Below are positions 12,954-58,576 of a stretch of 64,000 nucleotides of DNA, piece after piece. The notes beneath the pieces are model-generated. The model saw only the letters and a list, made by a program, of their open reading frames with translations. It searched no databases and was not told the origin of the DNA. Position 1 is the stretch's first letter. Each line of letters opens with the position of its first letter. The position numbers and the translations under genes were made by a program. Source of the DNA: a virus; IMG/VR virus record IMGVR_UViG_3300042888_002665; one strand, given 5' to 3'.

Positions 12954-13115
12954 ATGCCATTATTAGCAATCTCATTATTAATTAGTACATTATTTAGCGT
13001 AGTTTTAGTCAAATTTGACAATACTGAGCGGAAATCAAAACAACCCATCTCTAACCGCAGACATACTGGTGGAAGAAACGGGTTGTTAAATATTAATAAA
13101 GAAGTAATAGATTAG
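12954..13115 (+). CDS. Possible small single-TM protein on the opposite strand (53 aa)
   Basis: MPLLAISLLISTLFSVVLVKFDNTERKSKQPISNRRHTGGRNGLLNINKEVID, preceded by the A-rich AATATAAAATAAA, in a gap free of minus-strand genes. Confidence 0.4.
   Translation: MPLLAISLLISTLFSVVLVKFDNTERKSKQPISNRRHTGGRNGLLNINKEVID
13037..13087 (-). terminator. Long hairpin / putative terminator at the end of the tRNA-containing transcript
   Basis: AACAACCCGTTTC pairs with GAGATGGGTTGTT (13 bp, two G-U pairs on the minus strand), followed by TTGATTT. Confidence 0.5.
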
Positions 13116-13129
13116 TAAAAACGTTATAC

Positions 13130-13477
13130 CTATAATGTTATAGGTTCTATTTTAATGCGCTCTAATGAATCTTTTTCAATGATTTGTTTTAGCGCTTTAA
13201 TTTTCTTCTTAGTTTGAGTAAGATCTTTTTTATGTTGGATTAATTTATCATCAGTTTTTTTCTCTTTAAACCAACTAGCGGCAAAATCAGTTTTTTCTGT
13301 TTTATTTGCTTCATCCCATATTTTACGATATTCAAGTGCTTTAATTTCAGCATTGAGTTTCTGCTCCATACCTAATTCAGTACCTAATTTTTGTCTGTAA
13401 AATGTCATGTCTTGACTAGGCATCGGACCTCCAACGGCTAATCCCAGCATTATAAGTAATTCTTTTAAATCTAGCAT
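13130..13477 (-). CDS. Hypothetical protein, N-terminal hydrophobic segment and coiled coil
   Basis: 115 aa ORF; Lys-rich heptads at the C-terminus. Confidence 0.7.
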   Translation of the reverse strand: MLDLKELLIMLGLAVGGPMPSQDMTFYRQKLGTELGMEQKLNAEIKALEYRKIWDEANKTEKTDFAASWFKEKKTDDKLIQHKKDLTQTKKKIKALKQIIEKDSLERIKIEPITL

Positions 13478-13480
13478 AAC

Positions 13481-13612
13481 TTATCCTTTTAGTAATTGTT
13501 TTTTATTATCGTTGCACTCACATCTACATTTAGGGCAATCAAATGCTAATAGAGTACAAATACATCCTAAACCAAATCCAGCCAATGAGGCAATTGCAAT
13601 TGTTGTTATCAT
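13481..13612 (-). CDS. Small TM protein with a Cys-rich tail (43 aa)
   Basis: MITTIAIASLAGFGLGCICTLLAFDCPKCRCECNDNKKQLLKG; below track cutoff. Confidence 0.55.
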   Translation of the reverse strand: MITTIAIASLAGFGLGCICTLLAFDCPKCRCECNDNKKQLLKG

Positions 13613-13627
13613 AATAATAAATATTTG

Positions 13628-13699
13628 TAGCCCCAACGGGAATCGAACCCGTGACTCATCCGTGAAAGGGACGTGACTTAACCGCTTGTCGATAGGGCC
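13628..13699 (-). tRNA. tRNA-Glu(TTC)
   Basis: GGCCCTA acceptor, anticodon arm CGTCC-CTTTCAC-GGATG, T-loop GTTCGATTC. CCA not encoded. Confidence 0.92.
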
Positions 13700-13706
13700 A
13701 TTACTG

Positions 13707-13779
13707 AGCTTCCGGTCGGGGTCGAACCAACGGCCTGCTGATTACAAGTCAGCTGCTCTACCATCTGAGCTACGGAAGC
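13707..13779 (-). tRNA. tRNA-Thr(TGT)
   Basis: GCTTCCG/CGGAAGC acceptor, GCTGA-CTTGTAA-TCAGC, GTTCGACCC. Confidence 0.93.
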
Positions 13780-13783
13780 AATT

Positions 13784-13888
13784 TAGGAAAGTAGAAGATG
13801 GGTGCGTGGACATCTACTTTTATGATTGGCATTTCTAACCGATCGTACCCGCCCTTCCTACAGTTAAAGGATACATCCCAATCAACCT
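13784..13888 (-). ncRNA. Candidate structured RNA (or decayed tRNA) between tRNA-Ser and tRNA-Thr
   Basis: About 44% GC non-coding spacer with helices TGATTGG/CCAATCA and AAAGTAGA/TCTACTTT. Confidence 0.35.
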
Positions 13889-13891
13889 ATG

Positions 13892-13976
13892 AGGAGAGTG
13901 AGGGATTCGAACCCCCGGTCCTGTTACAGACAATAGTTTTCAAGACTACCTCGTTCGACCGCTCTGACAACTCTCC
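13892..13976 (-). tRNA. tRNA-Ser(TGA)
   Basis: GGAGAGT/ACTCTCC acceptor, GTAGT-CTTGAAA-ACTAT, long variable arm, GTTCGAATCC. Confidence 0.93.
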
Positions 13977-14016
13977 TTACATAATAAACATAATCAGGAA
14001 ATCTTTTATTTCCTAG

Positions 14017-14091
14017 AGTTGAGTGCTGGATTCGAACCAGCGATTTTGTCGTTTTGCAAACGAGTGCGTTTGGCCACTCCGCCAACTCAAC
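14017..14091 (-). tRNA. tRNA-Cys(GCA)
   Basis: GTTGAGT/ACTCAAC acceptor, CTCGT-TTGCAAA-ACGAC, GTTCGAATCC, U73 discriminator. Confidence 0.88.
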
Positions 14092-14096
14092 TTATG

Positions 14097-14167
14097 CACG
14101 TCCTAAAGGATTCGAACCTTTATCATCGCTTTTGGAGAGCGGTATGCTACCATTGCACCAAGGACAT
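14097..14167 (-). tRNA. tRNA-Trp(CCA)
   Basis: ATGTCCT/AGGACGT acceptor, CCGCT-CTCCAAA-AGCGA, GTTCGAATCC, G73. Confidence 0.9.
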
Positions 14168-14171
14168 AAAT

Positions 14172-14198
14172 AAAAAACCCCTAACTTGTGATTAGGGG
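14172..14198 (-). terminator. Intrinsic terminator (putative attenuator) 4 nt upstream of tRNA-Trp
   Basis: CCCCTAA-TCACAAG-TTAGGGG followed by TTTTTTATTT. Confidence 0.85.
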
Positions 14199-14227
14199 CC
14201 GATTTAATATATTATACGTTATCTATA

Positions 14228-14290
14228 CTATACCCCTATCCTAGCTGTTTCCTGCCAAGTCGAATTACAATATGTAGATGTTGTTTTCAT
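14228..14290 (-). CDS. Putative attenuation leader peptide MKTTSTYCNSTWQETARIGV
   Basis: ATG AAA ACA ACA TCT ACA TAT TGT AAT TCG ACT TGG CAG GAA ACA GCT AGG ATA GGG GTA TAG. The 3' end carries TAGGGG, complementary to the terminator 5' arm. Confidence 0.7.
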   Translation of the reverse strand: MKTTSTYCNSTWQETARIGV

Positions 14291-14294
14291 TTCG

Positions 14295-14302
14295 TATAAA
14301 TA
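14295..14302 (-). promoter_or_regulatory. Phage promoter-like motif TATTTATA (class A) driving the leader/tRNA operon
   Basis: Same motif recurs upstream of about 16 genes; here 4 nt before the leader ATG. Confidence 0.6.
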
Positions 14303-14310
14303 TATTTACT

Positions 14311-14514
14311 CTAATCTTTCTGTAATTCTTGTTTTAATTTTTCTAGGTATAAAATACCATCCATTAATTCATCTTGGGCGTGATTAATCCAATCAACTTT
14401 CTCTAAATCAGTACGATCTAAATCAGTACCGTATTTTTGGTTTCCCATACGAGCTCTACGCTCAAATTTAGCAATAATACTTGCTACTACTGTGTCTACT
14501 TTAAATTGATCCAT
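14311..14514 (-). CDS. Small MazG-like / all-alpha nucleotide pyrophosphatase-like protein
   Basis: KYGTDLDRTDL...WINHAQDELMDGILYLEKL. Confidence 0.55.
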   Translation of the reverse strand: MDQFKVDTVVASIIAKFERRARMGNQKYGTDLDRTDLEKVDWINHAQDELMDGILYLEKLKQELQKD

Positions 14515-14743
14515 TGTGTCCTATAACTTGTTCTAATGATTTATAATTCATTTCTTCACCATGATAAAATCCTAATTTGATATTATTATTATTGTCTTTA
14601 ATAATTTCACTAAAACCATATCCTTCACATATAATTCTAATACCATAATTTGGTTTTAATTTATTTGCCTCTTCAATAATATCAAAATCCCACGGCATTT
14701 CGGGATCATAACTTTCACACCATTGTTTTGAAAAATCAGCCAT
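14501..14743 (-). CDS. Hypothetical protein
   Basis: 80 aa ORF with AAAAGTTATG start context. Confidence 0.75.
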   Translation of the reverse strand: MADFSKQWCESYDPEMPWDFDIIEEANKLKPNYGIRIICEGYGFSEIIKDNNNNIKLGFYHGEEMNYKSLEQVIGHNGSI

Positions 14744-14758
14744 AACTTTTATTTTTCC

Positions 14759-14790
14759 TAAATGTAATTAAGAAATACTTAAGAAACAAA
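14759..14790 (-). promoter_or_regulatory. Bacteroidota-type promoter-like element (class B)
   Basis: TTTG-N20-TACATTTA, with TTTCTTAAT immediately 5' of the -7-like box. Confidence 0.55.
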
Positions 14791-14793
14791 CTA

Positions 14794-15417
14794 TTATTTA
14801 AATGTAAATCCAGTTAATTTCTCTATTTGTGCTAATGGAACTTCGTTATTTTGAAATCCATCTGATGGGGATAAGTCATTATTAAATAGATATGCATGCC
14901 ATTTACCTGCTACCTGAACTACTTTCCAACATTGTGTAGGAACTGATACTAGACCAATTTTCTTTGCCTCACCAATTGAACCACTCCATACTCTTACTTT
15001 TGAACTAATAGCGGCCCAATTTCTAGTTGCAGTTTCTAATGATTTCCAATCACCAGCATTTAATCTATGTGTTTGTGCTACCATGTTTGAATAATAGAAA
15101 CACTCATCTTGTATTGCTTGTGTTTGGCAAAGATTATCAGCTGCAGGCATTACGTGTCCTCTATCGTATCCACTTTTTACATAATAAACCGCAATATTAG
15201 TTTCATCTACTAATTGTGGATCTGGTTTAAAATTGTCTTTACGTTTTAAAGGTGTTAGACAGCCTACCATTGCTTTTGTTGTTTCCCATTGTACTAATAC
15301 TGGGTATCTTTTTGATTTACTGAAATGTGTTGTATAGTTTGTGTGTTTGATTACTACAATGTCTTGTGCTGTTAAACCAAATGATGCGAGTAATAATAGT
15401 AATAATAATTTTTTCAT
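14794..15417 (-). CDS. Secreted DNA/RNA non-specific (NucA/EndA-type, His-Me finger) endonuclease
   Basis: Signal peptide ...LTA|QD; YDRGHVMPAAD and SNMVAQTHRLNAGDWKSLE. Confidence 0.9.
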   Translation of the reverse strand: MKKLLLLLLLASFGLTAQDIVVIKHTNYTTHFSKSKRYPVLVQWETTKAMVGCLTPLKRKDNFKPDPQLVDETNIAVYYVKSGYDRGHVMPAADNLCQTQAIQDECFYYSNMVAQTHRLNAGDWKSLETATRNWAAISSKVRVWSGSIGEAKKIGLVSVPTQCWKVVQVAGKWHAYLFNNDLSPSDGFQNNEVPLAQIEKLTGFTFK

Positions 15418-56959: not shown

Positions 56960-58576
56960 TTAAACTTTAATATATTTGATAAATTCTGCATGGTCTATTA
57001 ATGTTTTAACATTTAAATGCATATTCAATAAGTAATTTCTTATCTGTGAATTTGATGAATCTCTCCTAGCGTCACTATAAATTGAATTAATAGTTTTAAA
57101 AGCAACATGAGCATCAAATAAACCAACTCCATATGCTACCGGATAAAAACTAGCATTACTGTATGCTTGGTTTATATCATATATAAAATCTTTATCTAAC
57201 ATTGCTTTTTTGCAATTATCAATCAATTTCTGAATGTTTTCTGTTGGTTTATTTTTTTGTTTAAATTCTTTCCAAAAATCACTATCATCACGTGTTGTGT
57301 AGTAATGTAAGTAAATGAAATCCTTAGTATCATCCTGGAATCTATTCATTTTAGCATTGTATCGATCAATATAGAATTGATTTTTTTCAATTGCACCTAA
57401 ATTATTAGCTAGATATTGTTTTAAAGCAGTAGTACTTGTCCAAAGTGATGTTGCTTCTAATGGTTCAACAAATCCAGATGATAATCCAACGGCAATACAA
57501 TTCTTTACCCAACTTTCTTTATATCTGCCTGGATCGAATTTAAATGTATTTCCGAATTCAACATCATCACCATACATTTCACGAATTTCGGCTTTAGCTT
57601 GTTCATCATCAATATAATCTGAATCGAATACATATCCACATCCATATCTTGTTTGAACTGGGATTTGCCACATCCAACCGTATTTTAATGCTTTTGCTTC
57701 TGTATATGGAGGGATTTCATCTTCATTAATTAATAAGAAGAACGGTAATGCGCGTTTCATTGGTAAATGATCTGAATATGATATCCACTCTGTATTGAAG
57801 TGTTTACCAATAATCTCACGTGCAAATCCAGTACAATCGAATACAAAATTACATGTTAATTTATCGCCACGTTCTGTTAGAATTGATGTAATAAATCCAT
57901 CATCATCTGATTCTATACCTGCTATTTTAGAATCAATATATTTGATTCCACGGTACATTGATGTTTTCTTTAGAAATTTAGCTAATAATCTAGCATCAAA
58001 ATGTAATCCATAATTAGATAATTCATTAAAATGATATAATGGATCTTCGCCTTTTGAATTTATTGATAAATTTGGAGAGAAATTAACTAAATTTCTTAAT
58101 GATGATTGTGCACTAAACATAACATCATCTAATGATTCTCCTTTAGCTATTTGCTCAAGAGCTAAAGTTGATATTCCATTATCATCTATATCAAGTGCTT
58201 TAAATAAATTTAAATCGTAGTTTTCCCAAAATCCATGGAAATATGATGTATCATCACCTTTCCAATCGGTAAATTTAATACCGTTTTTGAAAGTACCATT
58301 TGCGTGTTTGATTATTTCATTAACAGATATACCTACTTTATTTAAAAAACTAACAAAGTGAGGTGTTGTACCTTCTCCAGCACCTAAAATGCCAATTTCT
58401 TCACTAGCAATAACTGTTATATTTGCCCATGGGTAATAGGCTTTCATATGCAATGCTGTCATCCAACCTGCAGTACCTCCTCCAACTACAACAAAACTAA
58501 ATTTCTTTTGTTCGGAATCTTGTTTGTATCCACTAATGTTAGGTCCGATTGGGCCAATTGATTCTTTATTTTCCAT
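56960..58576 (-). CDS. Flavin-dependent tryptophan-halogenase-like protein
   Basis: VGGGTAGW, GAGEGTTP, ATFK-like GTFKNGIKF, WMWQIP (WxWxIP) and FVEPLEATS. Confidence 0.9.
   Translation of the reverse strand: MENKESIGPIGPNISGYKQDSEQKKFSFVVVGGGTAGWMTALHMKAYYPWANITVIASEEIGILGAGEGTTPHFVSFLNKVGISVNEIIKHANGTFKNGIKFTDWKGDDTSYFHGFWENYDLNLFKALDIDDNGISTLALEQIAKGESLDDVMFSAQSSLRNLVNFSPNLSINSKGEDPLYHFNELSNYGLHFDARLLAKFLKKTSMYRGIKYIDSKIAGIESDDDGFITSILTERGDKLTCNFVFDCTGFAREIIGKHFNTEWISYSDHLPMKRALPFFLLINEDEIPPYTEAKALKYGWMWQIPVQTRYGCGYVFDSDYIDDEQAKAEIREMYGDDVEFGNTFKFDPGRYKESWVKNCIAVGLSSGFVEPLEATSLWTSTTALKQYLANNLGAIEKNQFYIDRYNAKMNRFQDDTKDFIYLHYYTTRDDSDFWKEFKQKNKPTENIQKLIDNCKKAMLDKDFIYDINQAYSNASFYPVAYGVGLFDAHVAFKTINSIYSDARRDSSNSQIRNYLLNMHLNVKTLIDHAEFIKYIKV

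Follow-up and report, generated by a model that had tools for sequence, protein, structure and literature searches.

The closest described systems are the leader-peptide attenuators of amino-acid operons (trpL, hisL, pheL, leuL, and the enterobacterial thrL and ilvL), in which a short translated leader, rich in codons that report on the end product, is followed by an intrinsic terminator before the first structural gene; a segment in or near the 3′ end of the ORF competes for the 5′ arm of the terminator, and the position of the ribosome decides between the two pairings. The locus that we describe here, found in a 64,000-nt stretch of viral DNA (the window), has the same arrangement in front of a tRNA array, with a leader that we predict to be translated. 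Like the thr and ilv leaders, which sense several amino acids together, the putative sensor is multivalent. However, the regulated genes are tRNAs and not biosynthetic enzymes, and therefore the sensed molecule would be the direct product. The leaders of amino-acid operons carry a run of one or two kinds of codons, whereas the leader here resembles a roster, with one to four codons for each tRNA, covering 5-23 tRNA species and up to 20 amino acids. In addition, no 1:2 anti-antiterminator or pause hairpin was detected here, this being a feature of trp-type attenuators and not of all attenuators; and the module is phage-borne, in a host that is probably a Flavobacterium-like bacterium without Shine-Dalgarno use, and matches no Rfam leader family.

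T-box riboswitches also link the status of tRNAs to read-through of an intrinsic terminator via an antiterminator, but they bind uncharged tRNA directly (through the specifier codon and the T-box bulge), do not depend on translation, and regulate synthetase and amino-acid genes; the module here gave no T-box match, a translated ORF is proposed, and many tRNAs could be reported on together. In the proline-codon leaders mgtL and mgtP of Salmonella mgtA and mgtCBR, the decoding speed of a short ORF selects the downstream RNA structure. Those leaders respond to one amino acid or condition and act on protein genes, partly via Rho, whereas the module here combines many codon kinds, a tRNA array and an intrinsic terminator.

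We found one further phage with the same layout (a mini-ORF made of the amino acids of the tRNAs that follow, a near-copy of a terminator arm inside it, a terminator, and an array). In Caulobacter phage phiCbK, a 32-codon ORF (MSKTYRQFVRQIQVVRNIRAGRSRMADEGFRD) stands before Phe, Val, Ile, Ile, Val, Gln, and Gln tRNAs and contains a near-copy of the 3′ arm of the following terminator. This cassette lies at JX100813 51341-51630 and has no sequence relation to the window family. phiCbK is G+C-rich, has an alphaproteobacterial host, and carries several cassettes per genome, whereas the window family has one cassette per array, and its leader goes down from 43 to 20 codons with decreasing array size. 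A full-text literature search found no attenuator, leader peptide or regulatory element described for tRNA genes or phage tRNA arrays. The module bears on how phages control the tRNAs they carry and on why close relatives have very different sets.

Anatomy of the module before the tRNA array

The initial annotation had placed, on the minus strand, a promoter-like motif, a 20-codon ORF, a terminator, and a tRNA-Trp gene 4 nt further on, and every coordinate proved correct (Table 1). ARAGORN and Rfam agreed on the five downstream tRNAs (Trp, Cys, Ser, Thr, and Glu), and our recount likewise gave 10 of codons 3-15 as decoded by these five. The promoter-like motif, TATTTATA (14302-14295, minus strand), is separated from the leader ATG by a 4-nt gap, CGAA; the upstream gene ends in a TAG at 14313-14311. 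The leader codons are ATG AAA ACA ACA TCT ACA TAT TGT AAT TCG ACT TGG CAG GAA ACA GCT AGG ATA GGG GTA TAG. The terminator (GGCCCCTAAT/cacaa/GTTAGGGGTT, 14200-14176) has a 10-bp stem and runs into a T6 run at 14177-14172.

Table 1. Features of the leader module and the tRNA array, in window positions.
Feature	Position	Strand	Evidence
67-aa phage gene, PHROG families of unknown function	14311..14514	-	ORF list and PHROG matches
A/T-rich kept segment (..ATATATTTATACGAA), likely promoter -7-like box and translation-initiation region	14291..14310	-	Conservation
Leader ORF, 20 codons and TAG, predicted product MKTTSTYCNSTWQETARIGV	14228..14290	-	ORF list; open frame in about 20 variants
Putative sensor codons 3-15 (T T S T Y C N S T W Q E T)	14246..14284	-	Codon/anticodon matching
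Region 2 (GAUAGGGGU, read as GATAGGGGT), predicted antiterminator 5′ strand, among the final codons of the ORF and 3 nt ahead of its stop codon	14232..14240	-	Fold and duplex energy
Stop codon and spacer with small inner hairpin	14201..14231	-	Fold of pre-terminator RNA
Terminator 5′ arm (GGCCCCUAAU), common to the antiterminator and terminator helices	14191..14200	-	Folds, terminator scan
Terminator 3′ arm (GUUAGGGGUU) and U6 run	14172..14185	-	Terminator scan
tRNA-Trp (CCA), begins at 14167, 4 nt past the U run	14096..14167	-	ARAGORN and Rfam
tRNA-Cys (GCA)	14016..14091	-	ARAGORN and Rfam
tRNA-Ser (UGA)	13891..13976	-	ARAGORN and Rfam
tRNA-Thr (UGU)	13706..13779	-	ARAGORN and Rfam
tRNA-Glu (UUC), last gene of the array	13627..13699	-	ARAGORN and Rfam

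The layout in the window exceeds chance. Random in-frame 20-codon windows drawn from the long ORFs of this phage cover all five tRNAs in 0.3-0.8% of cases and hold at least 10 cognate codons in 0.5%. A CCCC...GGGG hairpin occurs once in the 64 kb (this terminator), against 0.04 expected, and the probability of TAGGGG falling by chance inside a 31-nt window is about 0.003. In an Rfam cmscan of positions 13000-15000 (E up to 1), the only matches were the five tRNAs and, overlying them on the opposite strand, chance matches to plastid UTRs; no leader family (His_leader, Trp_leader, Thr_leader, Leu_leader, and others), T-box (RF00230) or riboswitch was found in this interval. We also considered as a structured RNA the conserved 111-nt intergenic stretch between tRNA-Ser and tRNA-Thr, and rejected it (fold z of +0.4 against shuffles, and no Rfam match).

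The segment 5′ of the ATG is near-invariant in nine distinct short-leader loci, and the stop-codon-proximal bases vary there; this conservation suggests that the segment may act as a promoter. The window shows no enrichment of sites resembling CATATATTTATA (31 against 48.8 expected), and a scan for the sigma-70 consensus was uninformative (24 against 29 expected). There is no space for a promoter of the tRNAs' own, because only 4 nt separate the U run from tRNA-Trp, and 4-15 nt separate it from the first tRNA in most lineages; the spacer holds a TATAAT-like word, which was rejected for this role, since its transcripts would begin upstream of the terminator hairpin. The leaders of all lineages have an A at position -3, which in Flavobacterium johnsoniae is a positive determinant of initiation (PMC6847099) and would suit Shine-Dalgarno-independent initiation in Flavobacteriia.

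Conservation of the module in related contigs

In scans of viral and metagenome contigs, a short ORF and terminator before a tRNA array turned up in about 20 distinct versions, which bears out the expectation that the pair would be conserved in relatives. Three independent routes led to them: the neighboring protein (the 67-aa upstream gene was the anchor that retrieved the syntenic relatives L001-L008), the terminator on its own, and the upstream motif on its own. Freshwater samples were the source of L001-L008 and L201-L313. Among cultured phages the nearest relative is Flavobacterium phage immuto, whose tail sheath is 49% identical and in which we recognized no leader before the tRNAs, and a DNA search of the phage collection found no close cultured relative carrying the module. 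In the alignment of nine short-leader versions the flanks are near-invariant, and the middle of the ORF is hypervariable yet never closed; all indels in the ORF are multiples of three, and the spacer is near-identical across the short-leader group. The terminator helices measure 9-12 bp in all lineages, and the first tRNA begins 4-15 nt after the U run in most of them. In L008 and L116, gaps of several hundred bases inside the long arrays were considered as sites of second leaders, a candidate that we rejected because these gaps hold ordinary protein genes; the shortest gap examined there (about 190 nt) has no ORF and no leader.

The conserved ends of the short leaders (MK at the N-terminus, RIGV or RIGE at the C-terminus) might be taken as the sign of a functional micropeptide, to which the terminator would be unrelated. 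We find this hardly credible: the middle varies freely with in-frame indels, the long and short versions have almost no peptide sequence in common, and the conserved C-terminal codons overlap an RNA element whose GGGG changes frame between lineages.

The module could also be a plain leaky terminator of the upstream operon, with an untranslated or incidental ORF whose match to the tRNAs comes from common descent and chance. Genes are commonly followed by a terminator, and the module is dispensable, because it is absent from L004 and L007, where the tRNAs come straight after the upstream gene. An incidental ORF is at odds with a frame that is open through the hypervariable middle in all of the roughly 20 variants, including three deeply diverged leaders of 40-49 codons, where stop codons are expected to make up about 8% of random codons in such A/T-rich sequence (an estimate from base composition). 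The comparison of L116 with L218 further shows that the module moves as a unit into differing contexts and takes about 40 nt of its upstream sequence along.

Leader codons and the tRNA set

Leader size goes with array size: leaders of 20-21 codons accompany 5-9 tRNAs, and those of 40-49 codons accompany 17-24. Among the short leaders, that of the window samples 5/5 of its tRNAs (P 0.003-0.008), that of L002 7/7 (P 0.0002-0.001), and that of L298 8/8 (P below 0.0005); L214 samples eight of nine, including AGC for Ser(GCU), ATT for Ile, and AAT for Asn. The long leader of L008 samples all 23 anticodon classes of its array, the two boxes each of Ser, Leu, and Arg among them (P 0.0008). All 20 amino acids occur in the long leaders of four lineages (L008, L261, L116, and L302; P 0.0075-0.025 each) and 19 in that of a fifth, and this all-20 property was seen again in lineages recovered after its first sighting. 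Single-copy Trp, Cys, and His codons are retained in all long leaders. His, Pro, Ile, AGC-Ser, Asn, and Gln codons are mostly confined to leaders whose arrays have those tRNAs. When leaders and arrays were paired by permutation, the match of leaders to their own arrays was equalled or beaten in only 2/120, 4/5040, and 3/100000 pairings, P values that overstate independence, since the loci share ancestry. Thus leader codons covary with the tRNA set among these related loci, as the initial annotation had predicted for relatives, in leader size and amino-acid content as well as in the permutations.

The composition of the leader is kept while its sequence turns over; for example, the sole Ile codon occupies position 25 in L008 and 21 in L201. 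In addition, the rare NNG codons of four-fold boxes make up 14/49 of the sensor codons, as compared with 6.2% in phage genes (p 1e-6).

The match is imperfect in places. Glu codons are absent from the leaders of L001, L005, L214, and L331 despite tRNA-Glu in their arrays, and the match in L005 is poor (4/5, P about 0.2). In the window, the proposed agreement between leader and array stands in that all five tRNAs are sampled, and fails for TAT and CAG, which have no matching tRNAs; the leader agrees more closely with the L002 array (Jaccard 0.64) than with that of the window (0.45). Alignment with L001 and L002 shows that the window array has lost tRNA-Tyr and tRNA-Gln while TAT and CAG are still in its leader: in both relatives tRNA-Gln follows tRNA-Glu, and the same gene is cleanly deleted in the window. 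The two codons are relics of the lost tRNAs.

These results return us to the plain leaky terminator. The kinship of the loci inflates the statistics, and the imperfect matches of L005 and the window would fit it. Against it stand the recurrence of the all-20 property in later-found lineages, the retained single-copy codons, the enrichment of rare NNG codons, and a UAGGGG copy of the terminator arm that is kept in differing frames. Altogether we consider an incidental ORF before a plain terminator very unlikely.

Alternative helices and the proposed switch

In RNA of the window that lacks the terminator 3′ arm, the minimum-free-energy fold pairs region 2 with CCCCUA, and the small hairpin of the spacer sits inside the resulting antiterminator helix. 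This duplex is predicted at -13.4 kcal/mol (shuffles, -8.1 +/- 2.9), and the terminator hairpin at -13.2 kcal/mol. Folds and shuffle tests thus uphold the complementarity that had been noted between GA-TAGGGG-T and the terminator 5′ arm. The same alternative recurs in relatives: in nine of ten lineages the minimum-free-energy fold before the 3′ arm pairs (U)AGGGG with CCCCUA, and the 2:3 duplex outscores 94-100% of shuffles in every lineage. The predicted energies of the two helices, whose comparison had been suggested, are similar across lineages (antiterminators -11 to -20 kcal/mol, terminators -13 to -18 kcal/mol). A (U)AGGGG near the ORF end can pair with the terminator 5′ arm in every lineage, many of the loci having been retrieved with patterns that demand CCCCTAA and AGGGG. 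The antiterminator helix is 6-11 bp long, with a lineage-specific extension that follows the flanks of each terminator. The GGGG lies in differing reading frames across lineages, and therefore the constraint acts on the RNA. The compensatory change that had been expected is seen in part: pairs next to the core have changed in ways that keep them paired (G-C, G-U, and A-U at the stem base), whereas GGGG:CCCC itself is invariant, so that strict double compensatory changes do not occur in the helix cores. A trp-type 1:2-like helix drawn from single-sequence folds was rejected, since pairing of the 5′ part of the ORF with region 2 was no better than shuffles in any lineage (z -1.5 to +1.7); therefore an untranslated leader would default to read-through.

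Computationally, we thus find a start-bearing short ORF, codon enrichment, an intervening terminator and a competing antiterminator, without a 1:2 or pause hairpin. We regard it as likely that the module is a ribosome-mediated (leader-peptide) transcription attenuator that gates the phage tRNA array; the conservation of the module, the covariation of leader and array, and the alternative pairings all favor this interpretation, which the initial annotation had put forward. Because the leader codons change with the tRNA set in relatives, the tRNAs are probably made only when those codons decode slowly. Transcription would enter the short ORF, whose codons sample the tRNAs encoded downstream, and near the ORF 3′ end (U)AGGGG (region 2) would present a complement to CCCCUA, the 5′ arm of a terminator that ends 4 nt before the first tRNA. 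With fast decoding, the ribosome would cover region 2 and the small hairpin behind it while the polymerase makes the terminator; the 5′ arm would then pair with the 3′ arm, and transcription would halt before the tRNAs. A ribosome waiting at any sampled codon, with the tRNA scarce, uncharged or damaged, would leave region 2 free to capture the 5′ arm as antiterminator, and the polymerase would read into the array. RNase P would then free the tRNAs from the read-through transcript, and the outcome would be a negative feedback that holds the supply of exactly the phage-encoded tRNAs.

A translated ORF that reports on tRNAs might instead act by another mechanism or with the opposite sign, for example if stalling led to Rho-dependent polarity, if the ribosome affected the stability or processing of the RNA, or if the translation of something else were controlled. 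The sign that we propose comes from the pairing geometry, and 1:2 pairing did not exceed chance. In L008, L116, and L331 the stop codon lies 20-33 nt past the GGGG, so that simple stop-codon masking fails there and masking of region 2 would depend on timing or on melting of the inner hairpin. Nevertheless, what is conserved is an intrinsic terminator, an upstream copy of its 3′ arm, and a distance of 4-15 nt to the first tRNA; and cutting tRNA synthesis when tRNAs are short would be a positive feedback towards collapse. We therefore hold another mechanism or the opposite sign to be quite unlikely.

In the attenuator that we favor, slow decoding in general would be the trigger. Hosts have defences that target tRNAs, and phage tRNAs can counter them. 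The same attenuator might thus serve counter-defence, sensing the cleavage or depletion of host tRNAs by anticodon nucleases and inducing replacement tRNAs only then. The architecture would answer any slow decoding, tRNA cleavage included, and the short leaders focus on few tRNAs (Thr, Ser, Cys, Trp, Tyr, Gln, and Glu). On the other hand, long leaders in which every one of the 20 amino acids and 23 anticodon classes is represented fit general homeostasis of tRNA supply better, nothing in the window ties the array to a defence system, and the trigger is not readable from sequence; counter-defence as the purpose seems unlikely to us.

More broadly, we think it reasonably probable that phages regulate tRNA arrays by roster leaders that evolve with the array, a solution reached separately in this Flavobacterium-like phage family and in phiCbK, and that this would be the first known transcriptional control that senses tRNA supply to set tRNA synthesis. 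A roster leader, in this joint reading, would be a translated mini-gene with at least one codon per tRNA behind a switchable terminator, so that array transcription is fed back from the decoding speed of exactly those codons. Its length would follow the array, with 43-49 codons and all 20 amino acids for 17-24 tRNAs, and 20 codons for 5-9 tRNAs. If true, transcription of the array would be set directly by how fast the matching codons are decoded, and leader-peptide attenuation would extend from amino-acid metabolism to the translation apparatus. The cultured model phage phiCbK, on Caulobacter, appears to have an analogous element. The short module (promoter region, ORF, and two helices) would offer a natural and portable means of sensing how well chosen tRNAs are supplied. 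Each leader would also be a compact record, readable from sequence, of the tRNAs that the phage treats as limiting; leaders could then be used to annotate arrays, to date recent tRNA losses (as in the window), and to predict codon bottlenecks of the host.

Anatomy of the module and its phage

All of the elements that the initial annotation had described (an upstream motif, a 20-codon ORF, a terminator and an array of five tRNAs) are present, directly downstream of a 67-aa gene, at the positions listed in the table.

Features of the leader module and other loci in the window
Feature	Position	Strand	Remarks
Stop codon (TAG) of the 67-aa gene	14313-14311	minus	
Upstream motif, TATTTATA	14302-14295	minus	CGAA next, before the ATG
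Leader ORF, ATG AAA ACA ACA TCT ACA TAT TGT AAT TCG ACT TGG CAG GAA ACA GCT AGG ATA GGG GTA TAG	14290-14228	minus	
Terminator hairpin, GGCCCCTAAT-cacaa-GTTAGGGGTT	14200-14176	minus	T6 reaching 14172
tRNA-Trp, then Cys, Ser, Thr, Glu	start 14167, array end 13627	minus	
Stretch between tRNA-Ser and tRNA-Thr	13780-13890	minus	111 nt
ORF directly 3′ of the array	13481-13636	minus	51 aa
ORF matching the PHROG family annotated tryptophan halogenase	56960-58576	minus	538 aa; E 1e-109

As the null for leader codon content we used in-frame windows from those ORFs of the window phage that are 150 aa or longer, and the genes of this phage served as the null model for every lineage. Codons for all five tRNAs are found in 0.3-0.8% of random in-frame 20-codon windows, and at least 10 cognate codons in 0.5%. 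The CCCC...GGGG hairpin occurs once in 64 kb (0.04 expected), and the probability of a chance TAGGGG in a 31-nt window is about 0.003.

The 111-nt stretch is conserved nearly base for base in L001 and L002 (contigs of relatives, as are the other L handles up to L331), and the matching slot holds tRNA-Ser(GCU) in L214; neither ARAGORN nor Rfam finds a tRNA in it, it folds no better than shuffles (z +0.4), and its possible identities are a decayed tRNA and a spacer used in processing. The 51-aa ORF has a hydrophobic N-terminal half, a Cys-rich tail (CPKCRCEC) and no match in PHROG; its DNA is partly conserved at the same position in L001.

The window has a G+C content of 30-37%, with all genes examined on the minus strand, and encodes tail sheath, baseplate and fibre proteins, a ribonucleotide reductase and a DnaB-like helicase, so the phage is a myovirus. 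The closest cultured phage is Flavobacterium phage immuto, whose tail sheath is 49% identical, which makes a Flavobacterium-like host likely. Flavobacterium johnsoniae ignores Shine-Dalgarno sequences, and there an A at -3 with an A-rich, weakly structured start is the initiation signal (PMC6847099); all leaders have this A at -3 and such a start.

Conservation of the module and codon content of its leaders

With the 67-aa protein as query we recovered the syntenic contigs L001-L008, which have tRNA arrays at the same place. Leader and terminator are present in L001, L002, L003, L005 and L006, with tRNA-Tyr beginning 4 nt later; in L004 and L007 a tRNA comes directly after the upstream gene. 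Because the whole module is absent from these two close relatives, the promoter-leader-terminator unit behaves as a dispensable cassette, gained or lost as a whole. In both, no more than about 10 nt separate the first tRNA from the stop of the gene before it (L004:4182-4400, L007:4173-4280).

Further loci came from pattern scans (terminator alone; terminator plus AGGGG; upstream motif alone), which brought the total to 19 distinct versions of the ORF and, besides these, the L328/L329/L331 group; many loci were ascertained by patterns that fix the helix cores, and several arrays run to contig edges. A short ORF and terminator are thus conserved upstream of the relatives' arrays, as the initial annotation had anticipated. 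The module is preceded by about 40 nt of conserved sequence in settings that differ, behind two tRNA-Gly genes in L218 and behind unrelated sequence in L116, which suggests that the module may have its own promoter. The two genes, tRNA-Gly(UCC), lie upstream of the leader and outside the gated array (L218:1908-2056; also L193:528-676). The slot directly after the terminator is an empty 104-nt gap in L218 and holds tRNA-Asn in L116.

Comparing the nine distinct short versions shows almost no variation in the 20 nt upstream, the ATG AAA, the final codons (AGG/TGG ATA GGG G), the spacer or the terminator; codons 3-16 are hypervariable, with an indel that is a multiple of three, and never acquire a stop. 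That the leader encodes a functional micropeptide is extremely improbable, given that the peptide sequence is not conserved.

The leader shared by L002, L003 and L006 (MKNTSTYCTSTWQETARIGE) samples all seven tRNAs of its array (Tyr Trp Cys Ser Thr Glu Gln; P 0.0002-0.001), and that of L298 (MKNNSTHSYQTPWCIYTRIGV) eight of eight (Tyr Pro Trp Cys His Ser Thr Gln; P below 0.0005); the L001 leader, of the same type as L298, samples eight of nine, missing Glu. The L214 leader (MKTTSTYYSSNWCICTRIGV; array Tyr Ile Trp Cys Ser(UGA) Ser(GCU) Thr Glu Asn) also samples eight of nine; it has AGC, ATT and AAT, and every sensor codon (those in the middle of the ORF) has a tRNA except the fixed AAA and AGG. 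The His codon CAT is found in the leaders of L001 and L298, where tRNA-His is present, and is replaced by TAT in L005 and L259, both lacking this tRNA. In the L008 group, with a 43-codon leader and 23-24 tRNAs, the L008 leader has a cognate codon for 23 of 23 anticodon classes under family-box wobble, including both Ser, Leu and Arg boxes (P 0.0008).

The own-array match was equalled or beaten in 2 of 120 permutations when the five complete short arrays were used, 4 of 5040 with seven representatives and 3 of 100000 with ten, figures that are not true probabilities because the loci are related. Leader codon content therefore co-varies with the tRNA set, as had been predicted, own arrays fitting better than nearly all permuted pairings. 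All 20 amino acids are found in the leaders of L008, the later-found L116, L218, L273 and L313 (43 codons), L261 (40) and L302 (49), and 19, without Glu, in the L328/L331 group (47 codons); the probability of all 20 in a random window of matching length is 0.0075-0.025. Leaders with all 20 make it less likely that the attenuator is specifically a defence sensor of tRNA damage, a special case that we consider unlikely.

The tRNA most often missing from leaders is Glu. Two diverged lineages have, inside their long arrays and immediately preceding tRNA-Glu, a conserved gene of about 152 aa (GCDSQN...GAHVL...DLNPDP; L008:6198-6656, L116:4577-5032).

At position 25, where the L008 leader has its sole Ile codon, L201 has ATG, and an ATT has been gained there at position 21; leader composition persists while the sequence turns over. 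The window leader is of the L002 type, and the window array, which agrees with L001 at both deletion junctions, has clean deletions relative to L001 and L002 of tRNA-Tyr with the spacer behind it and of tRNA-Gln. TAT and CAG are retained in the leader, which is a closer fit to the L002 array (Jaccard 0.64) than to its own (0.45), so that it lags behind array decay; the lag is stronger in L005.

Across five representative leaders, 14 of the 49 sensor codons (5 of 10 in L008, 5 of 11 in L116, 4 of 8 in L261) are of the rare NNG kind in four-fold boxes (TCG, CCG, GCG, ACG and similar), compared with 6.2% in the window phage's genes (p 1e-6). These codons are read by the U34 tRNAs that the phages encode, and their decoding is likely slow.

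Alternative RNA pairings and proposed mechanism

The claim that an antiterminator competes with the terminator is upheld by computed folds. In 9 of 10 lineages, the minimum-free-energy fold of RNA ending before the terminator 3′ arm pairs (U)AGGGG near the ORF end (region 2; 14240-14232 in the window) with CCCCUA of the 5′ arm, enclosing a small inner hairpin. The energies of these folds (3′ part, -11 to -20 kcal/mol) are comparable to those of the terminators (-13 to -18), and once the 3′ arm is present the terminator wins in the computed folds. In every lineage the duplex of region 2 with the 5′ arm is better than 94-100% of shuffles (-13.4 vs -8.1 +/- 2.9 in the window, -15.6 vs -5.4 in L116, -17.9 vs -4.1 in L302). 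The conserved copy of the terminator arm, the frame kept open despite hypervariability, the recurrence of all 20 amino acids and the NNG bias all argue against a plain terminator with an incidental ORF, which is very improbable.

Antiterminator helices are 6-11 bp long and terminators 9-12 bp. The antiterminator is extended in directions that differ by lineage, copying the flanks of its own terminator (CUUUU:AAAAG in L302, AGUU:AACU in L116, CAGUU:AACUG in L313); the terminator foot pair is G-C, G-U or A-U, and an A to G change in the 5′ arm of L328/L331 retains a G-U pair with both partners. The anticipated compensatory changes are thus seen only in part, as compatible variation in flank pairs and extensions; in the core no strict compensatory change could be scored across the lineages compared, because GGGG:CCCC is invariant. 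The reading frame splits GGGG into GGG-G in the window and L116, but into GG-GG in L008, L261 and L302, and the constraint is therefore on RNA, not peptide. A trp-like helix between the 5′ part of the ORF and region 2 was not supported by the shuffle comparison. The terminator loop of L313:1290-1379 (TAATC) is inverted relative to L116:3039-3129 (GATTA), with both arms kept, and the inversion adds one antiterminator pair.

From the anatomy, conservation, covariation and alternative pairings we infer leader translation, the sign of the switch and its trigger as follows. With fast decoding, the ribosome would have reached region 2 and the inner hairpin by the time the polymerase is making the terminator; with region 2 covered, the terminator would form and keep the tRNAs off. 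If the ribosome waited at any upstream sampled codon, region 2 would be free to pair with the 5′ arm and transcription would continue into the array, giving negative feedback on tRNA supply. Since a ribosome covers about 10-12 nt of mRNA beyond the A site, the effective stall codons in the window would be roughly 2-12. In L008, L116 and L331, where the stop codon comes 20-33 nt after GGGG, the end of the ORF extends through the inner hairpin, and the ribosome's effect would depend on melting this hairpin and on timing rather than on its occupying region 2 at the stop. A switch of opposite sign, or one acting through Rho, is decidedly unlikely.

Known attenuators and Caulobacter phage phiCbK

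The proposed way of working is that of multivalent leader-peptide attenuators (thr, ilv). Unlike these, the module is found in phage, regulates tRNAs themselves, samples as many as all 20 amino acids, each through one or a few codons, has no detectable helix between the 5′ part of the ORF and region 2, and likely works in a host whose initiation is independent of Shine-Dalgarno sequences. It has no match among the Rfam families, and a full-text literature search found no attenuator or leader peptide for tRNA genes.

A cursory look at phiCbK (JX100813; pieces L333 and L334) found a 32-codon ORF (MSKTYRQFVRQIQVVRNIRAGRSRMADEGFRD) containing CGGGCGGGCC, a near-copy of the 3′ arm of an annotated terminator downstream; ORF and terminator precede tRNA-Phe, Val, Ile, Ile, Val, Gln, Gln. 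Two more annotated terminators stand just before tRNA blocks, each after a small ORF (L334:1081-1166 and L334:2540-2769; JX100813 48081-48166 and 49540-49769). One of these, gp083 (45 aa), which has many Ser, Leu, Pro and Lys residues and some Ala and Thr as well, stands before a block of Pro, Pro, Lys, Lys, Leu x3 and Ser x2, and a 20-aa ORF with Glu and Asp precedes tRNAs Glu and Asp; these matches look looser than that of the 32-codon ORF cassette. ARAGORN also predicts a permuted tmRNA gene (tag peptide VAANDNDVVAFASAREAIAA) at L333:3253-3692 (JX100813 103253-103692), a stretch with no annotated feature in the record.

The 32-codon ORF cassette suggests that the leader design may be used convergently in the window's family and in phiCbK, and this phage is a cultured, tractable model for it.
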